Positions 12,777-52,705 of a stretch of DNA of 64,000 nucleotides are shown here, one piece after another. Source of the DNA: an uncultured Clostridia bacterium (GTDB lineage: Bacteria; Bacillota; Clostridia; Christensenellales; UBA1242); contig CALVNW010000005.1 in assembly GCA_944350015.1 (NCBI GenBank), positions 12,296-76,295 of the forward strand, read 5' to 3'. The notes below the pieces were generated by a model, which saw nothing but the letters and a program-made list of their open reading frames with translations, had not been told where the DNA came from and did no database searches. The position numbers were made by a program, and so were the translations under genes. Numbering within the stretch: the first letter of the stretch is position 1; each line of letters starts with the position of its first letter.

Positions 12777-12786
12777 ATACCAGTAT

Positions 12787-13587
12787 CCCCACAAATTTTG
12801 CAATTTGCGGGGGCCCCAAAAAATGCAACACGAAACTAGGCAGAAGCGCAGGGTGCGATGCTTAACAATTTAGTAGATTTTATTATGTAAAATTTGTATT
12901 TCCATCTCAAAGTCGCGCTGAATTCGCAGCTTGCGAGAATTCACGTTTGGTGCGGCTATCACCCCACAAGTTATGTAACTTGCGGGGAACCCCGACAGAG
13001 AAAGAGCGCCCCGCCACGTCACAAACTACACTCAAGTGTTCATCTTACGATGATTCACCATTTCGCTCGTTTGCTTATCACCCCACAGATTAAACAATCT
13101 GCGGGGAACCCCGACCTTTTCCCCACAAATTTCACAATTTGCGGGGACCCCAAAAAATGCAACACGAAACTAGGCAGAAGCGCAGGGTGCGATGCTTAAC
13201 AATTTAGTAGATTTTATTATGTAAAATTTGTATTTCCATCTCAAAGTCGCGCTGAATTCGCAGCTTGCGAGAATTCACGTTTGGTGCGGCTATCACCCCA
13301 CAAGTTATGTAACTTGCGGGGAACCCCGACAGAGAAAGAGCGCCCCGCCACGTCACAAACTACACTCAAGTGTTCATCTTACGATGATTCACCATTTCGC
13401 TCGTTTGCTTATCACCCCACAGATTAAACAATCTGCGGGGAACCCCGACCTTTTCCCCACAAATTTCACAATTTGCGGGGACCCCAAAAAATGCAACACG
13501 AAACTAGGCAGAAGCGCAGGGTGCGATGCTTAACAATTTAGTAGATTTTATTATGTAAAATTTGTATTTCCATCTCGAAGTCGCGCT
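12787..13587. repeat. 334-bp tandem repeat, ~2.4 copies (copies 2 and 3 look identical by eye)
   Basis: Identical landmarks at 12787/13121/13455, and two identical spurious ORFs offset by exactly 334 nt. Each unit carries three 26-nt CCCC...GGGG hairpins. Confidence 0.92.
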
Positions 13588-13815
13588 GGCGTCGCAAACT
13601 ACGCTCAGGCTAAGTTGCAGTAGCAACTCTAGCATTATCGCTCGTTTGCTCCTTTCCCCACAGATTAAACAATCTGCGGGGACCCCGAGAAACTTGCATT
13701 TTCGTTTGGCGCGAGAACACCCCTAAAAATCTAACGATTTTCAGGGAAACCCAAAAGAGGCGAAAACAAATGTTAGGACGTAGCTTTTCGCTTTAAAAAA
13801 GCGAAAACAAGCAAC

Positions 13816-13850
13816 AATGCAGTTTTCGCCTCTGGTGCCGAAGACGGGAG
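13816..13850 (-). repeat. 35-nt duplicate of the tRNA-Leu 3' end plus trailer
   Basis: aatgcagttttcgcctctggtgccgaagacgggag occurs at 13816-13850 and 13937-13971. The second copy overlaps the real tRNA. Confidence 0.85.
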
Positions 13851-13953
13851 CCTTCACCCTTAAAATTTGACAATTTTAAGGGAACCCGAACGAACCCTCG
13901 GGTTCGACTCCCAACAAGTATTTCAAAAAAACTGCTAATGCAGTTTTCGCCTC

Positions 13954-14039
13954 TGGTGCCGAAGACGGGAGTCGAACCCGTATGAAGTTGCCCTCGACAG
14001 ATTTTGAGTCTGTTGCGTCTGCCATTCCGCCACTTCGGC
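13954..14039 (-). tRNA. tRNA-Leu (anticodon CAA), type II with long variable arm, CCA encoded
   Basis: The reverse complement reads GCCGAAG-TG-GCGGAATGGCAGACGC-A-ACAGA-CTCAAAA-TCTGT-(variable arm)-ACGGGTTCGACTCCCGT-CTTCGGC-A-CCA. Confidence 0.9.
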
Positions 14040-15786: not shown

Positions 15787-17214
15787 ATGAGTGATTTAAT
15801 GTATAAACTTAAACTTGTAAAAAATGAGCTTGAAAAAAGAAAAAAGGATGATTTTTTGTCCCGCTATAATACAGGTGAAAAAATACATAAAAAACAACTT
15901 GAATTTCACAAATGCAACAAGAAAAATAGATGGGTTTTTGGTGGCAATAGAAGTGGTAAAACCGAGTGTGGCGCCGTTGAGACAATCTATCTTGCTCGTG
16001 GCATACATCCATATAAAAAGAATAAGCCGATTTCTTGCTGGGTGGTGTCTTTATCTAAACAAGTGCAAAGAGATGTTGCGCAAGAAAAAATTTTGCACTA
16101 CCTGCGAAAAGATTGGATAGAAAAAGTTGTTATGGCAAGCGGTAGGTCAGACAGCGCCGAGAGTGGTATCATTGATTTTATCTTGGTTAGAAATGTGTTT
16201 GGGTCGCTAAGTAAGATTGGCTTTAAAAGTTGCGACCAAGGCAGAGAGAAGTTTCAAGGCTCATCTCTCGATTTTGTTTGGTTTGATGAAGAACCGCCAT
16301 ATGATATTTATCAAGAGTGCCGTATGCGTGTGCTTGACAAAAAAGGTATGATTTTTGGCACAATGACACCGCTTAAAGGACTTACCTGGGTTTACAATGA
16401 AATTTATTTGAACGAGAATAATGATAGCGAGGTGTGGCATATCGAAATGGAGTGGGCGGATAACCCATACCTTGATAAAGATGAGATTGAAGCAATGACT
16501 AAATCACTCTCACAAGATGAACTTGAAAGCAGAAGGTATGGCAAGTTTATGCAGTGTGGCGGGCTTGTCTATAGCGAATTTGATGAAAACGTAAATGTAA
16601 TTGACCCTTTTGACGTTCCGAAAGAGTGGCAAGACAATATCTCTATAGACCCAGGACTCAATAACCCGCTCTCTGCGCATTGGTATTGCGAGGATTATGA
16701 TGGCAATGTCTATGTGGTTGCCGAACACTATGCGCAAGGCAAAGATGTCTACTATCACGCAAATAAAATTAAAGAGATTTGTCAAAAATTAGATTGGCAT
16801 TATACAAATGGCAAGATTTCGGCACTGATTGATAGCGCCGCTATGCAAAGGACCCTTGCAAGCTCAAAAAGCGTGGTAGATTTGTTCTATGAAAATGATA
16901 TTTTGGTCAATCCTAGGGTAAATAAAGATATGTTCAGCGGGATAAACACTGTTAAGAGATACTTAAAAGACGGCGAAGGTAAACCGCATCTATTTATTTT
17001 TAGAAACTGTACAAACCTTATCAGAGAGATAAAATCTTATTGGTGGGGTGATAATGACCTTCCTATTAAAAGAGATGACCACTGCCTAGACGAAATGAGG
17101 TATTACCTTATGGATAAACAGCTTACGCTTAGAATAAAGGACAAAAAGAACGAGATACAAAAGGATAAACAGCGCCTTATCAAACAACTTAAAACAAGTA
17201 AGTATCATTTATAG
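15787..17214 (+). CDS. phage terminase large subunit (orphan)
   Basis: 475 aa. Walker A GGNRSGKTECG, Walker B-like VWFDEEP, and a C-terminal nuclease-type region (ISIDPG ... DDHCLDEMRY). Confidence 0.88.
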   Translation: MSDLMYKLKLVKNELEKRKKDDFLSRYNTGEKIHKKQLEFHKCNKKNRWVFGGNRSGKTECGAVETIYLARGIHPYKKNKPISCWVVSLSKQVQRDVAQEKILHYLRKDWIEKVVMASGRSDSAESGIIDFILVRNVFGSLSKIGFKSCDQGREKFQGSSLDFVWFDEEPPYDIYQECRMRVLDKKGMIFGTMTPLKGLTWVYNEIYLNENNDSEVWHIEMEWADNPYLDKDEIEAMTKSLSQDELESRRYGKFMQCGGLVYSEFDENVNVIDPFDVPKEWQDNISIDPGLNNPLSAHWYCEDYDGNVYVVAEHYAQGKDVYYHANKIKEICQKLDWHYTNGKISALIDSAAMQRTLASSKSVVDLFYENDILVNPRVNKDMFSGINTVKRYLKDGEGKPHLFIFRNCTNLIREIKSYWWGDNDLPIKRDDHCLDEMRYYLMDKQLTLRIKDKKNEIQKDKQRLIKQLKTSKYHL

Positions 17215-17300
17215 CAAACTTAGCCAGCCTTACGCTGGGCGATTATCGTTTGTGGAATCTGATATTTTATTGTATTCAGTCGGTGTAAACCCAAAAGGAA

Positions 17301-17922
17301 AAGGTGCTGACGTCACTTTTAATCGCCGAAAGGCGCGTATTTTAGTTGCCGAAGGCAACCAAAATACCCCTTAGAAACCCTAAAGCTTAGAAAGACCCCA
17401 CATTTTTTGTCTGAAAAATTTTTTCGAAGTACGTAAATTTGCTTGACAAAAAATGCGGGGGGGGTAGAATAGGGTATCGAAAAAATTGTGGAGACACCAA
17501 AACACTATACGCGGACACGCCTTACAAGTAAGGCTAACCGCTAGTGTACGCATTTTTCGGAATATAGATTCCTCAAATGCTTTTGGTTTCTCTCCCATAC
17601 CCTCTTCCACCCCCTAGAAAATTCCTCTGGAATTTTCGTCGTAAAGAGGAGCCTTACCGGCTACGCTTTTATGACGCAGGGTGAGAGGGGTCGATAAAGG
17701 TGACACCCCTAGTTTAAGTTTTAACTTTATATTTTTAATATGTTTTACTTTAATTTTCCCTTAAAACAACAAATTGAAAATATTTTAAAATTTGTTATTA
17801 AATTTGACGCAATTGTGACGACACGCTTGTGACAAAGGGTAAATTAAAGGTTAAAATAGGGGTATAAACTAGATGATTTTACACAAAGTAATATAAAAAA
17901 TTAAATAAAGGAGTAAGAAAAA
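17301..17922 (+). repeat. conserved upstream expression cassette, copy 1 (contains a copy-specific 248-bp insertion at 17479-17726)
   Basis: Near-identical to 26401-26829 and, from the promoter onward, to 52423-52705. Confidence 0.9.
17443..17470 (+). promoter_or_regulatory. promoter P1 with a G8 tract in the spacer (copy 1)
   Basis: TTGACA (17443-17448), 16-nt spacer aaaaatgcGGGGGGGG, TAGAAT (17465-17470). Confidence 0.5.
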
Positions 17923-19929
17923 ATGAGTCTAAAGATGAAATTAGTATCAATGATATCTGCGTTTGTACTTGTAATAGGAATGCTATTAATAGGAGTATTT
18001 GCAGTAAACCAAGCTCAAGTGGATATGGGTGGAAGCATTACCTTTAACGCAGATGATGTCTACGCTCGTGTTACAGGAAATGTAACAAAGGCGCAGGTTG
18101 CACCAGAGGATTTGGATGTAACCTATTCTGCCACTGGAACAACAGGCAACCCTACAGCGTGGGAAAACCTTAACCTTGAGTTTGATAGTTATGCCACACC
18201 AATAGTGATATCAATCACAGTAGAGAACCTAAGTACAGAGAGGAGCTTAACAGTAAACTTAACAGACGCTCTTACCTCTAGTGTGCCAAACTTAGGTAAA
18301 GCACTACAAAGAGATAATGGCGCGTATACAAGTGGAACAAATATAACCTTAGACCCTAAGGATAATGGCACAAGCACCACAACCTTTACCATAACCTTGT
18401 CAGTTACCGACAAAAACCAATCTCTCACCAACGCTCAGTTTGACTATGACCTTAATCTCTATGACGAGAGCGTAGCGCCAAAAGAAATTTTAGAAGGTTT
18501 TATATTTGACGATAGTGGCAATTTAACCTCATATACAGGTACAGATAGTGAAGTTACAGTCCCATCCTCATATTCTATGATAGGAGAGCCTACAACAAAA
18601 TCTCTATATTTTGAAACGGTTGATAGCACAGAAGAATATATGATGACATTAGTAGGCATAACTAATTTTAAGTTAACAACAGACGATGGCGAAGAATATA
18701 TATTAGATGACTTCGGAGATATGGTTTTTTCTCCAGATTTTGAAAGCAAGTTCCCTTGCACGCTAGAGTATAAAGATTATTCTAATGTTACTTTCACAAC
18801 AGGCAGTGACTATCAAGTAGAAGGGGTGGTAGGTGCATTTATAATGAATCAGACTATTCAAACAGTTAATCTTCCTGATACTATTAAAAATATAGGGATT
18901 TATTCGTTTACTACATCTACTTTGAATAATATAACCTTGCCAGAAGGTTTAATAAGTATAGGGGGTAGTGCATTCTATGGTTGCAGTAGCCTTACAAGTA
19001 TAACCTTGCCATCAAGTTTAACAAGTATATATTATGGTGCATTTTGGGATTGTGAAGGACTTACAAGTATAACCTTGCCATCAAGCTTAATAAGTATAGG
19101 TAAGGGTGCATTTAAGGATTGCAGTGGACTTACAGGGAAGTTGGATTTTAGCAATTGTACAAGTTTAACAAGTATAGGGGAATGGGCATTCTATGGTTGC
19201 AATGACCTTACAAGTATAACCTTGCCAGACAGTTTAATGAGCATAGGGGAGCGGGCATTCTATCAATGCAGTGGACTTACAAGTATAACCTTGCCAGACA
19301 GTTTAATGAGCATAGGGGAATATGCATTCTATGGTTGCAGTAATTTACAGCCATCAACAACTGATGATAACGGAGTAAAATATTTAGGCAGTGAACAAAA
19401 CCCATATTTAGTATTATGGGATGGAACAGGTATAACAAACTCGTCTTATACAGTCAATCCAGATTGTAAAATTATTTGCCCTAGCGCATTCTCTGGCTGC
19501 GATGTACTTACAAGCATAACCTTGCCAGAAGGTTTAAAAAGTATAGGAGATTATGCATTCCAAGATTGCAGTGGACTTACAACTGTAGATTTAAGTAATT
19601 GCACAAGTTTAACAAGTATAGGGATGCATGCATTCAGATATTGCAGTGGACTTACAAGTATAACCTTGCCAGAAAGGTTAACAAGTATAGGGGAGTATGC
19701 ATTCTCTAGTTGCAGTAAATTAACAGAAGTCATTATAGATAGCGAGTATGTATATACCAATGCAACATCGAGATCGGCGTGTGGTTATTTGTTTGGTAAC
19801 TCATCTACCACCACTGTTAAGGTTTTGACCAGTTTGGATGATGGAACTAATAGTTATATCACCACAAACTTCACGAAGGGTCCAACCGAGGTAATTAACG
19901 GAAAGAATTATACTGTTTACTCTAAATAA
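17923..19929 (+). CDS. BspA-type leucine-rich-repeat surface protein (paralog 1)
   Basis: 668 aa. N-terminal signal/anchor MSLKMKLVSMISAFVLVIGMLLIGVFAV. More than 8 repeats of LTSITLPxxLxSIGxxAFxxCxxL. Confidence 0.9.
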   Translation: MSLKMKLVSMISAFVLVIGMLLIGVFAVNQAQVDMGGSITFNADDVYARVTGNVTKAQVAPEDLDVTYSATGTTGNPTAWENLNLEFDSYATPIVISITVENLSTERSLTVNLTDALTSSVPNLGKALQRDNGAYTSGTNITLDPKDNGTSTTTFTITLSVTDKNQSLTNAQFDYDLNLYDESVAPKEILEGFIFDDSGNLTSYTGTDSEVTVPSSYSMIGEPTTKSLYFETVDSTEEYMMTLVGITNFKLTTDDGEEYILDDFGDMVFSPDFESKFPCTLEYKDYSNVTFTTGSDYQVEGVVGAFIMNQTIQTVNLPDTIKNIGIYSFTTSTLNNITLPEGLISIGGSAFYGCSSLTSITLPSSLTSIYYGAFWDCEGLTSITLPSSLISIGKGAFKDCSGLTGKLDFSNCTSLTSIGEWAFYGCNDLTSITLPDSLMSIGERAFYQCSGLTSITLPDSLMSIGEYAFYGCSNLQPSTTDDNGVKYLGSEQNPYLVLWDGTGITNSSYTVNPDCKIICPSAFSGCDVLTSITLPEGLKSIGDYAFQDCSGLTTVDLSNCTSLTSIGMHAFRYCSGLTSITLPERLTSIGEYAFSSCSKLTEVIIDSEYVYTNATSRSACGYLFGNSSTTTVKVLTSLDDGTNSYITTNFTKGPTEVINGKNYTVYSK

Positions 19930-20253: not shown

Positions 20254-22614
20254 ATGAAAAAAGTTTTTGTTTTTCTTTTTGCATTTTTATTTTGTCTATC
20301 GGGTGGCATATTATTGACATCTTCTTTTAATATGGACAAGGTGGCAAGTGCCGAAGATATCAACTATAGCGAAATAAATGTATCAAATGGTCAACAGCTA
20401 TTATCAACGCTTTCGGCAAATTCAACCTACAACAATGCAAATGTAAAAATCGTTTTAACAGATGATATAGACCTTGAGGGGATAGACCTTTCGCCTGCCT
20501 ATCTTGAAAGGCGGGTATTTACCGGCTTTTTTGAAGGCAATGGTTATGAAATTTCAAACTTTACTCTTTCGTCAAACACAAATGTCTATGGTCTTATACC
20601 TTACGCCTCTGGAGCAATTTTTCAAAACATAAGGATAACTGGCGCGGTAAATTTCTCTTTTGCTGAGAATAGTTTGCCAATCTATGCAGGTGTTTTAGTA
20701 GGTCAAGGCGAGAATGTGACGATTAAAAATTGTGAACTTTACAATGTAACCGTAAATATGGTTGACGAGGGTGGCGAGCAGGTTGAAGAGCGTAGTGAGC
20801 AGACTATAAGCATTCCTGTCAGCTCAAATTTGACCTTTGGAGGAATTATAGGGCTTGCAACAAGCTATTCAAGCGCTCTTGAGTCAAGTTTGACAACCAT
20901 ACAAAATTGCATAAACTATTATGACCTTCAAATTACATTGAACGCAAATAGTCGCATTGCAGTTGGCGGTATTGTTGGCGCGCTCAATAGCGGAAGTAGG
21001 GTTATAAACTGCCTAAACTATGGGAATATCAACATTACGAAAACCTCTCAAGTGACTGAGGCAAGCACTTCAAGTCAATATGTTGGCGGTATAGCAGGAG
21101 AGATAAGTGGCAATTCAACCACAATCAAGAATACAGCTTATGGTGGCACCATATCTTCTAATATTACAGATGCAAACTTCTACGCTGGCACACTTGTGGG
21201 CTACCTAAACTGCGCGCAGGCAAGCACAAATTACAATATTAACTTTTCATATTGGTCACAAAGCGCGTTAAATTATTATGGCACTGGCTATAAAATTTCG
21301 TCAGACTACCTTAAGCAACAAGGACTAATCAATAGGGCGTTTTTATCAAATGCCGACAACTTTGACAGCGTGGAGCCTAGCTTTGATTTCAACTATGACT
21401 TTACTATGATTGAAGGCGAAATTTTACTCCAAAGATTTCAAAATTATACGTTAGAATTTAATTCTCCTTTAGATAACGGGAATATTATAGCGAGTGCGAC
21501 CTTTAAAAGCGACACTCAATCTGTTACTAGCAATGCAATTAATGTTCGATATGGCGAAGAGATAACGATAACTATAACTTTTGCCGATGACTATATTGGC
21601 TACTATACATTATCTTCAACTACAGCGCCAATTTCAACTACGACAGGTCAGTTGTCAGCCGAATATTACACGGCAACACCACTTACAGACACGCGTGGTA
21701 TTTATGGGTACGAAATTTTATTGACTGCGTGTGACAGAACAGAAGGAGTATACTCTTTTACCCTAGATGAAGAGCAATATCTCTGCGAATTTGAAATTTC
21801 CGAGCAGGCAGACGCTGAAAGTCAAGGGATGCTTAGAAGAATAGGTGCAGAGCGTTCTACTACTCATATAAGTTTCCCATTTTCATATAGAAGTAGGTCA
21901 TTAAGCGTCAGAGCAGAGGGCAGTGGGTTCTATAGTTTTTCACATTGGGAATTATATTACAAGGACTCAAGCGGACAGTTTACTGAGCAAGCTTCTTTAA
22001 ATGACGAAATTAGAACAAGCGCGGTAGTAACTGTTGAGTATGGTACAGCACCTTGGTCAGAAGAGTTTAAGCTTGTTGCATACTTCACCGATGAAGAGGC
22101 GGTTAAATTAACAATAGGGAACTATTCAAGTGAGGCTGTAAGTTCAATCACTATTGATGAAGCACCATACACTGGGGAAGAGATGAGAATTCCGCCAAAC
22201 GGTACAATCACTCTTGAGGTTACAACAAATTCTGGCTACGTTATGGACGTCAATGCTTTCACCGTTTTAATTCAAAGGCTGTATGGTGACAATACAACTG
22301 ACGGGCTAGTATCTGACCCAATTGTCAATGAAGGCACAGGGCAAACGACCTATAGATTTAGAATTAATATGACCTATCTGCGTCCAAATATTACTGACAA
22401 TCAACTTCCACTTACTTTGATTATCACAGAGGATGGCTCTGGAAACAGTGATGATCTGCTATGGGTTTATATCGTTGTGCCAATAGTTGCCGTTTTGATA
22501 ATAGGTTTGATTATCTTCCTTATAATTAGACATCATCGTGGTGGCGGTGGCAAAAAAGCAAAAGCTGTTAAAGGGGGCGGAAAGAAAGAAAATTATAGAG
22601 ATTATTACGTATAA
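20254..22614 (+). CDS. GLUG-motif surface protein with C-terminal membrane anchor
   Basis: 786 aa with a signal peptide. Repeated GGI(I/V/A)G motifs (FGGIIGLA, VGGIVGAL, VGGIAGEI). C-terminal TM helix plus a G/K-rich tail. Confidence 0.75.
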   Translation: MKKVFVFLFAFLFCLSGGILLTSSFNMDKVASAEDINYSEINVSNGQQLLSTLSANSTYNNANVKIVLTDDIDLEGIDLSPAYLERRVFTGFFEGNGYEISNFTLSSNTNVYGLIPYASGAIFQNIRITGAVNFSFAENSLPIYAGVLVGQGENVTIKNCELYNVTVNMVDEGGEQVEERSEQTISIPVSSNLTFGGIIGLATSYSSALESSLTTIQNCINYYDLQITLNANSRIAVGGIVGALNSGSRVINCLNYGNINITKTSQVTEASTSSQYVGGIAGEISGNSTTIKNTAYGGTISSNITDANFYAGTLVGYLNCAQASTNYNINFSYWSQSALNYYGTGYKISSDYLKQQGLINRAFLSNADNFDSVEPSFDFNYDFTMIEGEILLQRFQNYTLEFNSPLDNGNIIASATFKSDTQSVTSNAINVRYGEEITITITFADDYIGYYTLSSTTAPISTTTGQLSAEYYTATPLTDTRGIYGYEILLTACDRTEGVYSFTLDEEQYLCEFEISEQADAESQGMLRRIGAERSTTHISFPFSYRSRSLSVRAEGSGFYSFSHWELYYKDSSGQFTEQASLNDEIRTSAVVTVEYGTAPWSEEFKLVAYFTDEEAVKLTIGNYSSEAVSSITIDEAPYTGEEMRIPPNGTITLEVTTNSGYVMDVNAFTVLIQRLYGDNTTDGLVSDPIVNEGTGQTTYRFRINMTYLRPNITDNQLPLTLIITEDGSGNSDDLLWVYIVVPIVAVLIIGLIIFLIIRHHRGGGGKKAKAVKGGGKKENYRDYYV

Positions 22615-22637: not shown

Positions 22638-24704
22638 ATGGGTTTGATTGACCAGTTATTTGAACAAATAAAAAACTCTAAAGATTCTGAGAAAGAGGCG
22701 GTTGATTTTTTAAACCACACCTATTTTGGTGATGAGGAGGTTAAATCTCAAGCCGAGCAATATGTTTCACATATTTTAAATGATGTTGTAAAACAAAACA
22801 AAGAGTTGTCGCCTCTTGAGGCTAAAATTATTCATTGCATACTTGCAAAGATGACGCTTGCACAGTTAAATTTGGATAATATAGAAGTTAATTACTTAGA
22901 TAGACCAAATAATAGTAATGCAGGGGCATTTTATAGAAACAATACCATCAACTTTTTTAATCAATCGGTCTGCAATAAAGAAGAGTTTCTTTTGCCTTAT
23001 GGCAAAGACTCAGAAAGAGGGGGAAGAAGTAGACTCAATTATTTTGTGAATGAGTTGTTTAAACTTGAACACGAAATTCAACACGCAGTGCAGTTTGAAA
23101 GTATGAATGCAAGCACTTCTAACCCCGAACAATTATCTGTTGACGATTACATAATCAGCAGGCAGTATGTAGCTCGACTTTTTGCAACAGCAGAAAATTC
23201 AAAATACTATAAGCAAGGACTTAATGCCGATAGGTTGTATTACGATAATCACAATCAATTTTATTATGAGATTGATGCAGATTTAAAGGGAATGGAAAGA
23301 ACATTATCCCTACTAAATAATCTTTCAAAACCTGCCTATGACCTGGCTGTAGATGAAAAAATTGGCTGGAAATTCTTATCTAAGATTGAAGAGAAACAAG
23401 AGCAGATTGACAACTATGGCGATGTTGCTTGGTCTCACAACACTAATCCTAAAAACTTAAAAGTCAGTGCAAATCATAAGGCAAGTATGATAGTCGACAA
23501 TATTCTTCCACTCTTAGATAACAAGCAAAGGGAAGAATTTATGCGAACATATCCAGCCTTGCATATAACATATAATCGTGATGGCTCGAAGAAAAGCTTA
23601 GAACAAATAGAAAGAGAATTTTTTGAGAAGAAGAACAAAATACTAACAAATGGGACCGATGAGCAAGTAAGCGTTGAAGTGCCGAAGCTTGAGAAATTAC
23701 AAGTTGCTGTAATTGAGAGTGACCCTCTTCTTTCTTTTGAAAAGTGTTTACAGCATATTGCTAGAATGACTTGGGATGAACAGAGATATTATACAGACTC
23801 TGGGATAGAAGAAAAATACAATCCTAAGTGTATAGGTACTGAGATAAAAATGGCAAGAGAAAAAGCTACAAAAATTGCCGAGTATTTTGAAGAATCACAA
23901 GCAAAATCAGCAACGAAAATACTAGACAAGTACAAAAAAGAAATATTGAACAGCCGAAAGCATAATGCAAGAGATTTGCGTTTCTTTGAGCAAAAAAAGT
24001 TGGCAATTTTTGATATCGAGGGCGAGATAAACGCAAACAAGATTGTTCACGATGTCATTAAAAAGGATTCTCTAGAGGCCCAAACAAAAAGGCGAAGGCA
24101 ACGTCAAGACCAAACCCAAGCTCGACAAATTATTGAAAAAGTTTTCCCAACATTTCAACCTTCTCCACAAGTTGGCACTTTAAAAGATAGCTCGGTGGAA
24201 TTGTTAAATAACAGTAAGGAACAACTTATGCTTATGGAAGCTTATAGGGAATATATTAAAACTATTATTTCGCAAAAGAAATCTTTTGATAAAGACAAAG
24301 ACTTTGTTCCATCTGGTGTTTTGTTGTCTGCTATAAAAACTCTTTATAACTTTACGCCAAGCGAAGAAGAAAAATCTGAATTTATGAAAGCTTTAAATAA
24401 TGGTGAAATTGATGTAATAGAAAATAAGTATCAGAGCAGACAAAACAAAGGTGCCTACTCGCAATCAGAGGTTGAAAGCGTGGAAGGTAGAAGTTATAGC
24501 TTTAAATCTATCACTCCACAAACAAAAAAGCAAGAGAAGAGTACGGATTTTAAAGACCCTGAGGCTGACGGGGAACAGGGGTTTTATAGGAGCCAGCGAA
24601 AAGAAAATGAAGAGGTTGAATTAGATGAATATGGTGTTCCAATACCAAAGACAAAGGGATTTAATGATAAAAATTTTAATCAGGATATAGAGTTTAACAG
24701 ATAA
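22638..24704 (+). CDS. large hypothetical protein with an HExxH motif
   Basis: 688 aa. RBS ggagga, 23 nt after the GLUG gene. LEHEIQHAV is a possible zincin motif. No signal peptide; K/E-rich. Confidence 0.65.
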   Translation: MGLIDQLFEQIKNSKDSEKEAVDFLNHTYFGDEEVKSQAEQYVSHILNDVVKQNKELSPLEAKIIHCILAKMTLAQLNLDNIEVNYLDRPNNSNAGAFYRNNTINFFNQSVCNKEEFLLPYGKDSERGGRSRLNYFVNELFKLEHEIQHAVQFESMNASTSNPEQLSVDDYIISRQYVARLFATAENSKYYKQGLNADRLYYDNHNQFYYEIDADLKGMERTLSLLNNLSKPAYDLAVDEKIGWKFLSKIEEKQEQIDNYGDVAWSHNTNPKNLKVSANHKASMIVDNILPLLDNKQREEFMRTYPALHITYNRDGSKKSLEQIEREFFEKKNKILTNGTDEQVSVEVPKLEKLQVAVIESDPLLSFEKCLQHIARMTWDEQRYYTDSGIEEKYNPKCIGTEIKMAREKATKIAEYFEESQAKSATKILDKYKKEILNSRKHNARDLRFFEQKKLAIFDIEGEINANKIVHDVIKKDSLEAQTKRRRQRQDQTQARQIIEKVFPTFQPSPQVGTLKDSSVELLNNSKEQLMLMEAYREYIKTIISQKKSFDKDKDFVPSGVLLSAIKTLYNFTPSEEEKSEFMKALNNGEIDVIENKYQSRQNKGAYSQSEVESVEGRSYSFKSITPQTKKQEKSTDFKDPEADGEQGFYRSQRKENEEVELDEYGVPIPKTKGFNDKNFNQDIEFNR

Positions 24705-24798: not shown

Positions 24799-24830
24799 AA
24801 ATGTTAGTTCTGCAATTAGAACTAACATTT
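24799..24830. terminator. bidirectional terminator
   Basis: 13-bp perfect stem aaatgttagttct/agaactaacattt between convergent genes. Confidence 0.7.
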
Positions 24831-26400: not shown

Positions 26401-26829
26401 AAGGTGCTGACGGCACTTTTAATCGCCGAAAGGCGCGTATTTTAGTTGCCTTCGGCAACCAAAATACCCCTTAGAAACCCTAAAGCTTAGAAAGACCCCA
26501 CATTTTTTGTCTGAAAAACTTTTTCGAAGTACGTCAATTTGCTTGACAAAAAATGCGGGGGGGGTAGAATAGGGTATCCAAAATAAATTTTGGATACCCT
26601 ATTCTATATTTTTAAATGTTTTAACCTTAATTCTCTTTAAAAACAACAAATTAAAAATATTTTAAAATTTGTTATTAAATTTGACGCAATTGTGACGGCA
26701 CGCTTGTGACAAAGGGTAAATTAAAGGTTAGAATAGGGGTGAATAATGCAAAAATCGTCGATTTTTGTATATTACTAGATTATTTTACACAAAGTAATAT
26801 AAAAAATTAAATAAAGGAGTAAGAAAAAA
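26401..26829 (+). repeat. conserved upstream expression cassette, copy 2
   Basis: Aligns with 17301-17922 and 52423-52705. Confidence 0.9.
26543..26570 (+). promoter_or_regulatory. promoter P1 with a G8 tract in the spacer (copy 2)
   Basis: TTGACA (26543-26548), G8 at 26557-26564, TAGAAT (26565-26570). The -10 box is part of a 19-bp perfect palindrome, 26565-26606. Confidence 0.5.
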
Positions 26830-28650
26830 ATGAGTCTAAAGATGAAATTAGTATCAATGATATCTGCGTTTGTGCTTGTAATAGGTATGCTATTAATAGG
26901 TGTATTTGCAGTAGAAAGGGTGCAAGTGGATATGGGTGGAAGCATTACCTTTAACGCAGATGATGTCTATGCTCGTGTTACGGGAAGTGTAGTAAATGCA
27001 CAGGTTGCACCAGAGGGCTTAGATGTAACCTATTCTGCCTATGAGACAACAGGCAACCCTACAGCGTGGGAGAGCCTTGACCTTGAGTTTGATAGTTATG
27101 CCACACCAATAGTGATATCAATCACGGTAGAGAATCTAAGTACAGAGAGGAGCTTAACAGTAAACTTAACAGACGCTCTTACCTCTAGCGTGCCAAACTT
27201 AGGTAAGGCACTACAAAGAGATAGCGGTGCGTATACAAGTGGAACAAATATAACCTTATACCCTAAGGATAATGGTACAAGCACAACAACCTTCACCATA
27301 ACCTTGTCAGTTTCCGACAAAAACCAATCTCTCACCAACGCTCAGTTTGACTATGACCTTAACCTCTATGACGAGAGTGTAGCACCAAAAGAAATTTTAG
27401 AAGGTTTTATATTTGACGATAGTGGCAATTTAACCTCATATACAGGTACAGATAGTGAAGTTACAGTCCCATCCTCATATTCTATGATAGGAGAGCCTAC
27501 AACAAAATCTCTATATTTTGAAACGGTTGATAGCACAGAAGAATATATGATGACATTAATAAACATAACTAATTTTAAGTTAACAACAGACGATGGTGAA
27601 GAATACATATTTGATGACTTCGAAGAAGTGGCTTTGTCTTCAGATTATGTTAACTATTTCCCTTGTACGCTAGAGTATAAAGATTATTCTAATGTTACTT
27701 TCACAACAGGCAGTGACTATCAAGTAGAAGGAGTGGTAGGTGCATTTGCATTTAATCAAACAATTCAAACAGTTAATCTACCTGATTCTATTAAAAATAT
27801 AGGGTTTTATTCTTTTTTTGGTTCTACTTTAAAGGAGATAACCTTGCCATCAAGTTTAACAAGTATATGGGAAGCTGCATTCGATGATTGCGACAATTTA
27901 CAACCATCAATAACTGACCAAGGAGTAAAATATTTAGGTAGTGAGCAAAACCCATATTTGGTATTATGGGATGGAACTGGTATAGAAACATCAACATATA
28001 TAGTCAATGAAAAATGCAAATTTATATATTCAGATGCATTCGAGGCTCACTATTCGCTTAGAACAGTAACAATCCCAGCTAGTGTAACCGAGATAGGAGA
28101 CAATCCTTTTGCAGAATGTAGTAACCTAGAGAGTATAATAGTAGAGGCAGGGAATAGTAGTTACTACGTTGAAGGTAATTGTTTGATAGAGGAATCAACC
28201 AAAACCTTAATAAAAGGATTAAATAATTCCACTATACCTAGTGATATTAAAATAATAGGGGATAAAGCATTCTCTTATTGCGAAAGACTTACAAGTATAA
28301 CTCTGCCAGAAGGTTTAATAAGTATAGGACTCTGGGCATTCCTATATTGCAGAGGACTTACAAGTATAACCTTGCCAGAAGGTTTAACAAGTATAGGGGC
28401 AGGTGCATTCTATTATTGCGACGGGCTTACAAGTATAACCTTGCCAGAAAGTTTAACAAGTATAGGTGGTGGCGCATTCTCCAATTGTAGGAGTTTAACC
28501 TCAGTAACATTTAAAAATACTACGGGATGGCAAGTATCAACTTCGTCATCTATGACAAATCCAATTCTTGTTGATGTGACAAATTCAAGCACTAACGCAA
28601 GTACTTTTAGAGGGGAGTATGGTAATTACTACTGGAAACGCAATGTGTAG
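26830..28650 (+). CDS. BspA-type leucine-rich-repeat surface protein (paralog 2)
   Basis: 606 aa. The first ~245 aa are nearly identical to paralog 1. The C-terminus (...VDVTNSSTNA...YYWKRN) matches paralog 3. Confidence 0.9.
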   Translation: MSLKMKLVSMISAFVLVIGMLLIGVFAVERVQVDMGGSITFNADDVYARVTGSVVNAQVAPEGLDVTYSAYETTGNPTAWESLDLEFDSYATPIVISITVENLSTERSLTVNLTDALTSSVPNLGKALQRDSGAYTSGTNITLYPKDNGTSTTTFTITLSVSDKNQSLTNAQFDYDLNLYDESVAPKEILEGFIFDDSGNLTSYTGTDSEVTVPSSYSMIGEPTTKSLYFETVDSTEEYMMTLINITNFKLTTDDGEEYIFDDFEEVALSSDYVNYFPCTLEYKDYSNVTFTTGSDYQVEGVVGAFAFNQTIQTVNLPDSIKNIGFYSFFGSTLKEITLPSSLTSIWEAAFDDCDNLQPSITDQGVKYLGSEQNPYLVLWDGTGIETSTYIVNEKCKFIYSDAFEAHYSLRTVTIPASVTEIGDNPFAECSNLESIIVEAGNSSYYVEGNCLIEESTKTLIKGLNNSTIPSDIKIIGDKAFSYCERLTSITLPEGLISIGLWAFLYCRGLTSITLPEGLTSIGAGAFYYCDGLTSITLPESLTSIGGGAFSNCRSLTSVTFKNTTGWQVSTSSSMTNPILVDVTNSSTNASTFRGEYGNYYWKRNV

Positions 28651-52088: not shown

Positions 52089-52422
52089 GATTAAAGGAAA
52101 AGCTTGCAAAATGATTGTTTAAGGGATATTAAAAAAATAGGATTTTTGAGTCTAGCAAGCAATCAACCGCTCATACTGTCGTCAGTTGTACGCTGGGCGA
52201 AGTATTAAATTAATCCTCTTTTTGGGGACACAGATAGCGTGTCGCATTTTTTGGCAACCTTAGGTTGCACCATTTTTAATCATCCTCATTGGCAGAAATT
52301 GCGGAGAGATAAGCGATCGTAGCATTTTTTGGCAAGCCCAGGGACTTGGCGAAGCATTAAAATTAATCCTCATATGTGGGACACAGATAGCGTGCCGCAT
52401 TTTTTGTGATAAAAATTAAACG

Positions 52423-52705
52423 AAGTACGTCAATTTGCTTGACAAAAAATGCGGGGGGGGTAGAATAGGGTATCCAAAATAAATTTTGGATACCCTATTC
52501 TATATTTTTTATATGTTTTAACCTTAATTTTCTTTAAAAACAACAAATTAAAAATATTTTAAAATTTGTTATTAAATTTGACGCAATTGTGACGACACGC
52601 CTGTGACAAAGGGTAAATTAAAGGTTAAAATAGGGGTGAATAATGCAAAAATCGTCGATTTTTGCATAATACTAGATTATTTTACGCAAAGTAATATTAA
52701 AAACA
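52423..52705 (+). repeat. conserved upstream expression cassette, copy 3
   Basis: Aligns with 26523-26810 and includes the same promoter, palindrome and leader hairpins. Confidence 0.9.
52439..52466 (+). promoter_or_regulatory. promoter P1 with a G8 tract in the spacer (copy 3)
   Basis: TTGACA (52439-52444), G8 at 52453-52460, TAGAAT (52461-52466), followed by the same palindrome. Confidence 0.5.

Follow-up and report, generated by a model that had tools for sequence, protein, structure and literature searches.

To our knowledge, most documented cases of promoter phase variation driven by simple repeats come from a small number of pathogens (Neisseria, Haemophilus, Treponema, Helicobacter and the mycoplasmas). 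The neisserial porA tract ranges from nine to eleven G (G9-G11) and acts as a three-step volume control; that of opc is poly-C. In Mycoplasma hyorhinis, the vlp genes carry poly-A in the promoter spacer, and the Vmm and Vmc genes of M. mycoides and M. capricolum carry TA repeats there, with each gene toggled independently. The T-tract of Helicobacter pylori sabA lies beside the -35 box and acts via DNA geometry rather than via how far apart the -35 and -10 boxes lie. The subject here is a promoter, P1, present in three copies in a 64-kb window of DNA from an uncultured Clostridia bacterium (contig CALVNW010000005.1; the window is the whole 64,000-nucleotide (nt) stretch that was analysed). Each copy has a run of eight G (G8) in its -35/-10 spacer and lies upstream of a gene for a BspA-type leucine-rich repeat (LRR) surface protein. 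We consider it reasonably likely that slippage in this poly-G tract tunes P1 by stepping its spacer through 15, 16 and 17 nt, that at least five surface-protein loci do so independently of one another, and that this acts on top of a second, non-variable promoter, P2.

In both Neisseria meningitidis porA and Treponema pallidum tp0126, transcription is governed by the length of a poly-G tract in the -35/-10 spacer, the optimal spacing being 17 nt (PMC7864442); the original prediction for this DNA also invoked porA as a precedent. The P1 of the window resembles porA in placing a G homopolymer in the spacer of a surface-protein promoter. The cassette of upstream sequence to which P1 belongs differs in its shorter tract (G7-G9) and in its low-GC host, which has Gram-positive-type genes and is not a proteobacterium. 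It differs further in preceding at least five paralogs per genome, in being flanked by two inverted repeats, and in having a second promoter downstream. In T. pallidum, the promoters of tp0126, tprE/G/J and tprL contain poly-G tracts of ~7-11 nt that vary in length within and between isolates (PMC7864442). The common feature is poly-G in the promoters of a paralogous surface-protein family; the gene family and the phylum are different, and most of the tpr tracts lie just upstream of the transcription start. Additionally, the treponemal cases rest on fragment-length and reporter evidence, whereas the window cassette is known from sequence alone.

The vlp, Vmm and Vmc systems come closest in organisation, as multigene surface families in which every gene has its own repeat-bearing promoter, but their repeats are A or TA and their products are lipoproteins of wall-less Mollicutes. 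With its standard genetic code and its murG gene, the window organism is not a classical mycoplasma. Candidatus Mycoplasma girerdii encodes at least 28 BspA-like genes, eight of them with simple sequence repeats that vary in length in metagenomic reads (PMC5476646). Those repeats are mostly dinucleotides that act by frameshift in the affiliated reading frame, at the level of translation (PMC5476646), in contrast to the spacer homopolymer of the window, for which a transcriptional effect is proposed. Finally, the homopolymer T-tract near the core promoter of sabA is described as a stepwise rheostat (PMC4081817), and the proposed P1 switch would be alike in stepwise tuning rather than strict on/off control.

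P1 and the genes it precedes

An exact 28-mer, TTGACAAAAAATGCGGGGGGGGTAGAAT (TTGACA-AAAAATGC-G8-TAGAAT), occurs three times in the window, always on the + strand, with none expected from 100 shuffles. The original prediction had placed the same promoter before all three BspA-like genes, with G8 inside the -35/-10 spacer. Both statements are accurate: a perfect 28-mer stands at each of the three positions, and its G8 tracts are the sole runs of seven or more G or C in a window of ~35% GC. The promoters and genes are as follows.

17443..17470, + strand: P1 promoter copy 1, TTGACA, 16-nt spacer (AAAAATGC plus G8), TAGAAT; G tract at 17457-17464
26543..26570, + strand: P1 promoter copy 2; G tract at 26557-26564
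52439..52466, + strand: P1 promoter copy 3; G tract at 52453-52460
17923..19929, + strand: BspA-type LRR surface protein, paralog 1, 668 amino acids (aa), N-terminal signal anchor MSLKMKLVSMISAF...
26830..28650, + strand: BspA-type LRR surface protein, paralog 2, 606 aa
52757..53920, + strand: BspA-type LRR surface protein, paralog 3, 387 aa

P1 agrees with the sigma-70 consensus at 11 of 12 positions (exact -35 box, TAGAAT as the -10 box, 16-nt spacer) and is the top sigma-70 match within the 12.5 kb scanned. The three copies are parts of one upstream cassette of ~150-350 nt (alignment A1; repeat families D5, D8 and D9) that was duplicated, and they are therefore not independent occurrences. 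Copies 2 and 3 of the cassette are 95% identical over 198 nt, and the genes have diverged far more than the cassette, paralogs 2 and 3 having 68% and 34% identity, respectively, to paralog 1. Farther out, at ~45-60 nt upstream of the -35 box, the flanks become copy-specific. All three gene products match PF13306 (BspA-type LRR_5). At least five cassette copies exist in the same species, each before a different surface protein of one family, whose members have a common N-terminal signal anchor and mostly BspA-type LRRs; when the N-terminal domain of paralog 1 was used as query, paralogs 4 and 5, with the same cassette, were located outside the window.

Tract length among assemblies and in the related lineage

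Independent public assemblies encoding proteins identical to the cassette neighbours served as the comparison set; accessions ERZ24773513, ERZ24773273 and ERZ24773266 correspond to BRZ_Q, BRZ_C and BRZ_CF. Copy 1 was sampled via terminase contigs only, most of which end before the cassette, because no gene in the collection has the exact paralog 1 product; nor does any encode P0013. The tract lengths found are these.

Copy 1: G8 in L022 (BRZ_B)
Copy 2: G8 in the window; G7 in L005 (BRZ_Q)
Copy 3: G7 in L012 (BRZ_C) and L017 (BRZ_Q); G8 in L011 and L013
Fourth paralog (P0015): G8 in L043 (BRZ_C); T plus G7 in L044 (BRZ_Q), with the 16-nt spacer preserved
Fifth paralog (P0005): G8 in three assemblies; G9 in L047 (BRZ_CF)

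The tract had been put forward in the original prediction as a candidate phase-variation switch, with G7/G8/G9 heterogeneity as the sign to look for. All three lengths are seen across the independent assemblies, which, together with conservation of the tract in relatives, lends support to that proposal. In L012, a single missing G is the sole difference from the window across 7420 nt (0 mismatches), and the G tract is likewise the only indel in L005 (5 mismatches) and L017 (1 mismatch). Two further contigs break within the run itself, L021 ending in ...TGCGGGGGGG and L041 beginning with GGGGGGGTAGAAT. Within the single sample BRZ_C, copy 3 is G7 and copy 4 is G8; the loci thus vary independently of one another.

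As a control, every homopolymer was counted in the near-identical alignments of 39 contigs, 151 kb in total. The G8 tracts changed length in 4 of 10 covered cases (4 of 9 without a duplicate contig) and showed one substitution besides, as compared with length changes in 2 of 94 covered A/T runs of at least 7 nt (Fisher p = 6e-4). The tract thus changes far more than its surroundings. Two other tracts had been proposed as length-variable. The A-run before the ATG does measure 5 nt in paralog 1 and 6 nt in paralog 2, but its sole change among the contigs (in L041) falls within a conversion tract and does not support length variability; T7 at 27813-27819 is present as described, but is invariant in every covering contig.

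That conversion tract is found in copy 2 of BRZ_BE, where L041:1-300, aligned to window positions 26558-26830, contains a copy-1-type segment spanning P2 and the 5' untranslated region (UTR). The 29-nt UTR hairpin is missing from L041, and its ATG is preceded by A5 where the window has A6; gene conversion between cassettes therefore occurs. A separate observation concerns the T-run at 52505-52512, directly after the second inverted repeat (IR2) of copy 3, which is one T shorter in L011 and rearranged in L013 and L015, where a T has become A and one base is deleted. The cassette thus contains a second variable site, weaker than the first.

The cassette extends beyond the species. L049, from a related species, has the diverged form TTGACA-AAAAAGGC-G7-TAAAAT, and 17 further loci of the related lineage (G7-G9) were recovered from three metagenomes, at 3 to 8 per sample and similar coverage. 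These surfaced only with a relaxed pattern; the species-specific pattern gave 0 matches in the first Joint Genome Institute (JGI) metagenome scan and in the IMG/VR scan. A degenerate P1 pattern (W-coded A-run, G-run of at least 4, variable gap) gave 6 matches in a scan of one genome per GTDB species; the one that was read (L028) is an unrelated promoter, and no match fell in a genome that has the three copies of the window.

Taken over all 33 cassette instances, the tract is G8 in 21, G7 in 5 and G9 in 4, and is interrupted in 3 (TG7, GAG5 and G8AG). Every instance has a perfect TTGACA and a TARAAT at a spacing of 15 to 18 nt, and P1 faces the downstream gene in all of them. The poly-G is unbroken in 30 of the 33 despite changes in the flanks (TGC to GGC, TAGAAT to TAAAAT). 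Tract length also differs between similar loci, with G9 in L056 and G8 in L067 at 93.6% identity, and G7 in L049 and G8 in L060 at 91.5%. Most of the downstream genes begin with a signal anchor, M(K)SLKxKL..., and many but not all contain LRRs; the product is lipoprotein-like in L068 and a membrane protein in L058. In five of the 17 loci (L062, L068, L056, L059 and L058), and likewise in L067, an ATG with a Shine-Dalgarno sequence lies 46-103 nt past the P1 match. This distance leaves no room for another promoter, and P1 is therefore the working promoter of these short-leader loci.

The cassette thus has a homopolymer between the hexamers, in the window copies and the 33 instances alike, a tract of excess variability, and surface products, as indicated by three PF13306 matches and by the signal anchor common to most downstream genes. 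By these features of position, variability and gene type, its assignment to the promoter-spacer homopolymer class of phase-variable loci is well supported at the level of sequence comparison.

Framing elements, proposed action of the tract and competing readings

In copies 2 and 3 the cassette reads, in order, left arm of the first inverted repeat (IR1), ~32 nt, P1 with G8, -10 box/IR2, an AT-rich stretch, P2, a UTR hairpin, Shine-Dalgarno sequence and ATG. The elements other than P1 are located as follows.

17396..17411, + strand: IR1 left arm, copy 1, CCCCACATTTTTTGTC, complementary to the -35/spacer segment GACAAAAAATGCGGGG at 17445-17460
26496-26511, + strand: IR1 left arm, copy 2, CCCCACATTTTTTGTC
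52393-52408, + strand: IR1 left arm, copy 3, TGCCGCATTTTTTGTG
26565..26606, + strand: IR2, copy 2, palindrome with 19-20-nt arms, TAGAATAGGGTATCCAAAAT aa ATTTTGGATACCCTATTCTA, then TATTTTT
52461..52502, + strand: IR2, copy 3, same sequence as in copy 2
17829..17857, + strand: P2, copy 1, GTGACA-17-TAAAAT
26706-26734, + strand: P2, copy 2, with TAGAAT as the -10 box
52603-52631, + strand: P2, copy 3, a promoter-like element
26746..26770 and 52643-52667, + strand: 5'-UTR hairpin ATGCAAAAATCG/TCGATTTTTGTAT downstream of P2, not in copy 1

The poly-G tract sits between IR1 and IR2, both of which are conserved. The right arm of IR1 is formed by the P1 -35 box and the A-rich part of the spacer, with a conserved stretch of ~32 nt between the arms. 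GC[A/C]TTTTTTG pairs with CAAAAAA[T/G]GC over a loop of constant size (31-33 nt), and in 23 of 23 loci the two arms agree on either the A:T or the C:G version. The 5' arm of IR2 starts with the P1 -10 hexamer, TAGAAT. IR2 folds at -27.5 kcal/mol (z -7.8, 20 pairs, 6 of them G-C), and a scan labels 26564-26607 a terminator; the part remaining in RNA initiated at P1 folds at -5.1 kcal/mol. IR2 is found in most cassettes, with changes in both arms (TAGAAT/ATTCTA versus TAAAAT/ATTTTA, TATCC/GGATA versus TATCAA/TTGATA) and a loop of 8 to 48 nt. The concordant arm changes in IR1 and IR2 probably represent one or two independent events, so that as sequence evidence for pairing they are suggestive rather than strong.

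Other roles for these repeats were considered. An operator for a dimeric repressor was judged unlikely for IR2, since fixed arm spacing would be expected; the variable loop therefore favours nucleic-acid pairing over a fixed dimeric operator. The idea that the 3' arm of IR2 holds a promoter on the minus strand was rejected for want of an acceptable -35 box in the sequence. An invertible promoter (inverton) was rejected as well, as P1 points toward the gene in 33 of 33 instances and the promoter is not enclosed as a unit by IR1 and IR2; a scan of 30 window proteins turned up no recombinase domain. The one inverted element is the structured RNA of L042, described below. In a nearby hairpin, the stem GTTGCC/GGCAAC is common to 17345-17359 and 26445-26459, and the 4-nt loop is reverse-complemented between them (GAAG versus TTCG), the pattern that template switching or hairpin flipping would leave.

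Every window copy retains P2, and the long-leader loci of the related lineage have P2-like modules whose distance to the ATG is ~90-110 nt and which are preceded by a conserved TGACGGCAC-type motif. Repeated TGAC motifs precede P2 in the window (TTGACGCAATTGTGACGACACGCTTGTGACA; 17805-17835, 26682-26712 and 52579-52609), and the related lineage has ATGACnnCATTATGACGGCAC at the corresponding position; these motifs may be a candidate regulator-binding site for P2.

The proposed mechanism begins with P1 as a promoter of the housekeeping-sigma (sigma-70/sigma-A) type, in which the slippage-prone poly-G would set the distance from -35 to -10. Gain or loss of one G during replication would yield spacers of 15 nt (G7), 16 nt (G8) or 17 nt (G9), and the altered spacing would change the strength of P1 separately at each copy. 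An effect of length on transcription is suggested by these three spacings together with the behaviour of porA and tp0126. Through the proposed switching within the population, at which the two contigs that break inside the G run and the presence of both shorter (G7) and longer (G9) variants around the G8 mode hint indirectly, a clonal population would come to contain cells that differ in their surface coats. IR2 and its T-run might act as an insulator, halting read-through from upstream, with the -10 box forming the outer 5' arm of the stem. Transcripts from P1 would start inside this arm, keep just the weaker hairpin and escape, such that output would depend on P1. In this genome, P1 would add a stochastic layer over P2 and is probably not the sole switch.

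Several points weigh against this mechanism. The modal G8 gives a 16-nt spacer, short of the 17-nt optimum, and P1 lies 260-450 nt from the ATG in the species of the window, with a terminator-like hairpin and P2 in between; P2 could carry most of the expression. Only three pure tract lengths are seen, a narrower spread than at many contingency loci, and the differences are between consensus metagenome assemblies, not among reads. The near-identity of the cassette copies could be due to gene conversion and not to selection. Finally, the tail of IR2 is not T-rich in many loci of the related lineage, and the insulator idea is therefore not general.

A more far-reaching version of slippage-tuned P1 can be put forward tentatively. 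The cassette might be a portable, self-insulated contingency promoter, its poly-G framed by inverted repeats and its -10 box placed in a terminator arm, that has spread by recombination (at least five per genome, up to eight loci per metagenome, at least two lineages). Independent toggling of its copies would then produce combinatorial surface coats, and the promoter would also drive a structured RNA of ~180 nt, described below.

Among the rival explanations, the one that survives best, while still unlikely in our estimation, treats the length polymorphism as real but neutral. Expression would be set by P2 and regulators, and the cassette would have spread by duplication and gene conversion without adaptive switching. 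The presence of P2 in all window copies and of its counterparts in long-leader relatives fits this account, as does the upstream TGACGGCAC-type motif, which could bind an activator, but in the short-leader loci, with the ATG at 46-103 nt, P1 is the only possible promoter. L041 attests to inter-cassette gene conversion and G8 predominates (21 of 33), both as neutrality would have it; against this, 30 of 33 instances have an intact homopolymer, although the flanks differ between the lineages concerned. A change of spacer in a consensus promoter would moreover be expected to alter its activity, as with porA and tp0126 (PMC7864442).

An improbable alternative is that the cassette is a structured nucleic-acid module (a terminator or insulator, a repetitive extragenic palindromic (REP)-like repeat or a recombination site) whose promoter look is incidental, the G run being the base of a CCCCACA...TGCGGGG-type hairpin. 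Eight CCCCACA-N12-TGCGGGG hairpins with the same stem base do occur at 12787-13681, but a C-run upstream, with which the G-run could pair, is missing from copies 3-5 and from the related lineage. The conservation and concordant arm changes of IR1 and IR2, and the terminator call at 26564-26607, would suit such a module. An incidental promoter is hard to reconcile with a perfect TTGACA and TARAAT at 15-18 nt in 33 of 33 instances, with a cassette always oriented toward the gene, or with short-leader loci having a Shine-Dalgarno sequence and an ATG at 46-103 nt. That G7, G8 and G9 are sequencing or assembly errors is scarcely credible: G homopolymers are error-prone on some platforms, all the evidence comes from metagenome assemblies, and two contigs stop within the run, but G7 occurs at two loci in contigs of ~33x coverage (BRZ_Q: L005 and L017), both G7 and G8 occur within the one study that comprises BRZ_B, BRZ_C and BRZ_Q, A/T runs of the same length are stable in the same contigs, and the substitution variants TG7, GAG5 and G8AG are real sequence diversity at the site.

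If slippage does tune P1, the surface repertoire of such bacteria should be treated as stochastic, not fixed, in strain-level analyses. The same switch logic is proposed to operate over a whole family of BspA-type adhesin-like proteins, with G7, G8 and G9 already present in public assemblies. New relative to the described systems are the host (low-GC, with Gram-positive-type genes and known from metagenomes only), a multi-locus cassette that crosses lineages, the framing by inverted repeats and the placement before a structured RNA. An arrangement in which a promoter and a terminator-like hairpin overlap is specific and directly testable. More broadly, contingency loci can be flagged without culture when independently assembled genomes of one species are compared.

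A structured RNA candidate and the surroundings of copy 1

Copy 1 has, in place of the 3' arm of IR2, ~240 nt with a strong fold (-87 kcal/mol, z -5.65), within which lies one further element.

17487..17666, + strand: structured RNA candidate, core of ~180 nt, directly after P1; wider folded region 17471-17730

Homologs occur directly after P1 in L054:680-857(-) and L065:280-455(+). A further one, L042:1-203(-), has the opposite orientation and adjoins a BspA gene without P1 and P2. RNAalifold on the four sequences gives 32 pairs, 9 of them with compensatory changes; the pairs are unbroken apart from three in the terminal helix that lie beyond the end of the L042 contig. Both strands fold about equally well. 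Rfam at gathering scores returned two tRNAs only for the whole window and no match on L054 and L065; at E<=1, nothing credible was returned for 17200-17950, where two far-below-threshold microRNA-model matches fall over the promoter hairpin. The ~240-nt replacement has no match in the phage collection and no convincing open reading frame was found in it. Scanning the window and 35 loci with a covariance model yielded no additional copy, and the element is present once per genome in the sequence examined.

Downstream of paralog 1, two large genes follow on the same strand (20254-22614, 786 aa; 22638-24704, 688 aa), with 0 matches in Pfam and NCBIfam, and a bidirectional terminator-like hairpin at 24799-24830 ends the gene group. 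These two genes may form an operon under the copy-1 cassette. After the fifth paralog, L045:4413-6344 encodes a 643-aa protein with weak matches to sigma-70 region 2 and region 4, which could be a regulator tied to the BspA-type gene family.

Upstream of copy 1, a 33-nt direct repeat (13818-13850 and 13939-13971) contains the 3' end of tRNA-Leu(caa) (13954-14039, - strand) and, from its sequence, resembles a scar left by integration. Between this repeat and the cassette is a gene for a terminase large subunit (15787-17214). All public contigs with the terminase are shorter than 5 kb (14 of 15 at 2-5 kb), and the gene is therefore flanked by repeats; the region may be a prophage or satellite remnant. 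Farther upstream, the eight hairpins mentioned above fall within three tandem 334-nt units (12786-13753). Their stem base is common to a hairpin formed by the P1 upstream sequence and the P1 spacer, and they may constitute a REP-like repeat family.

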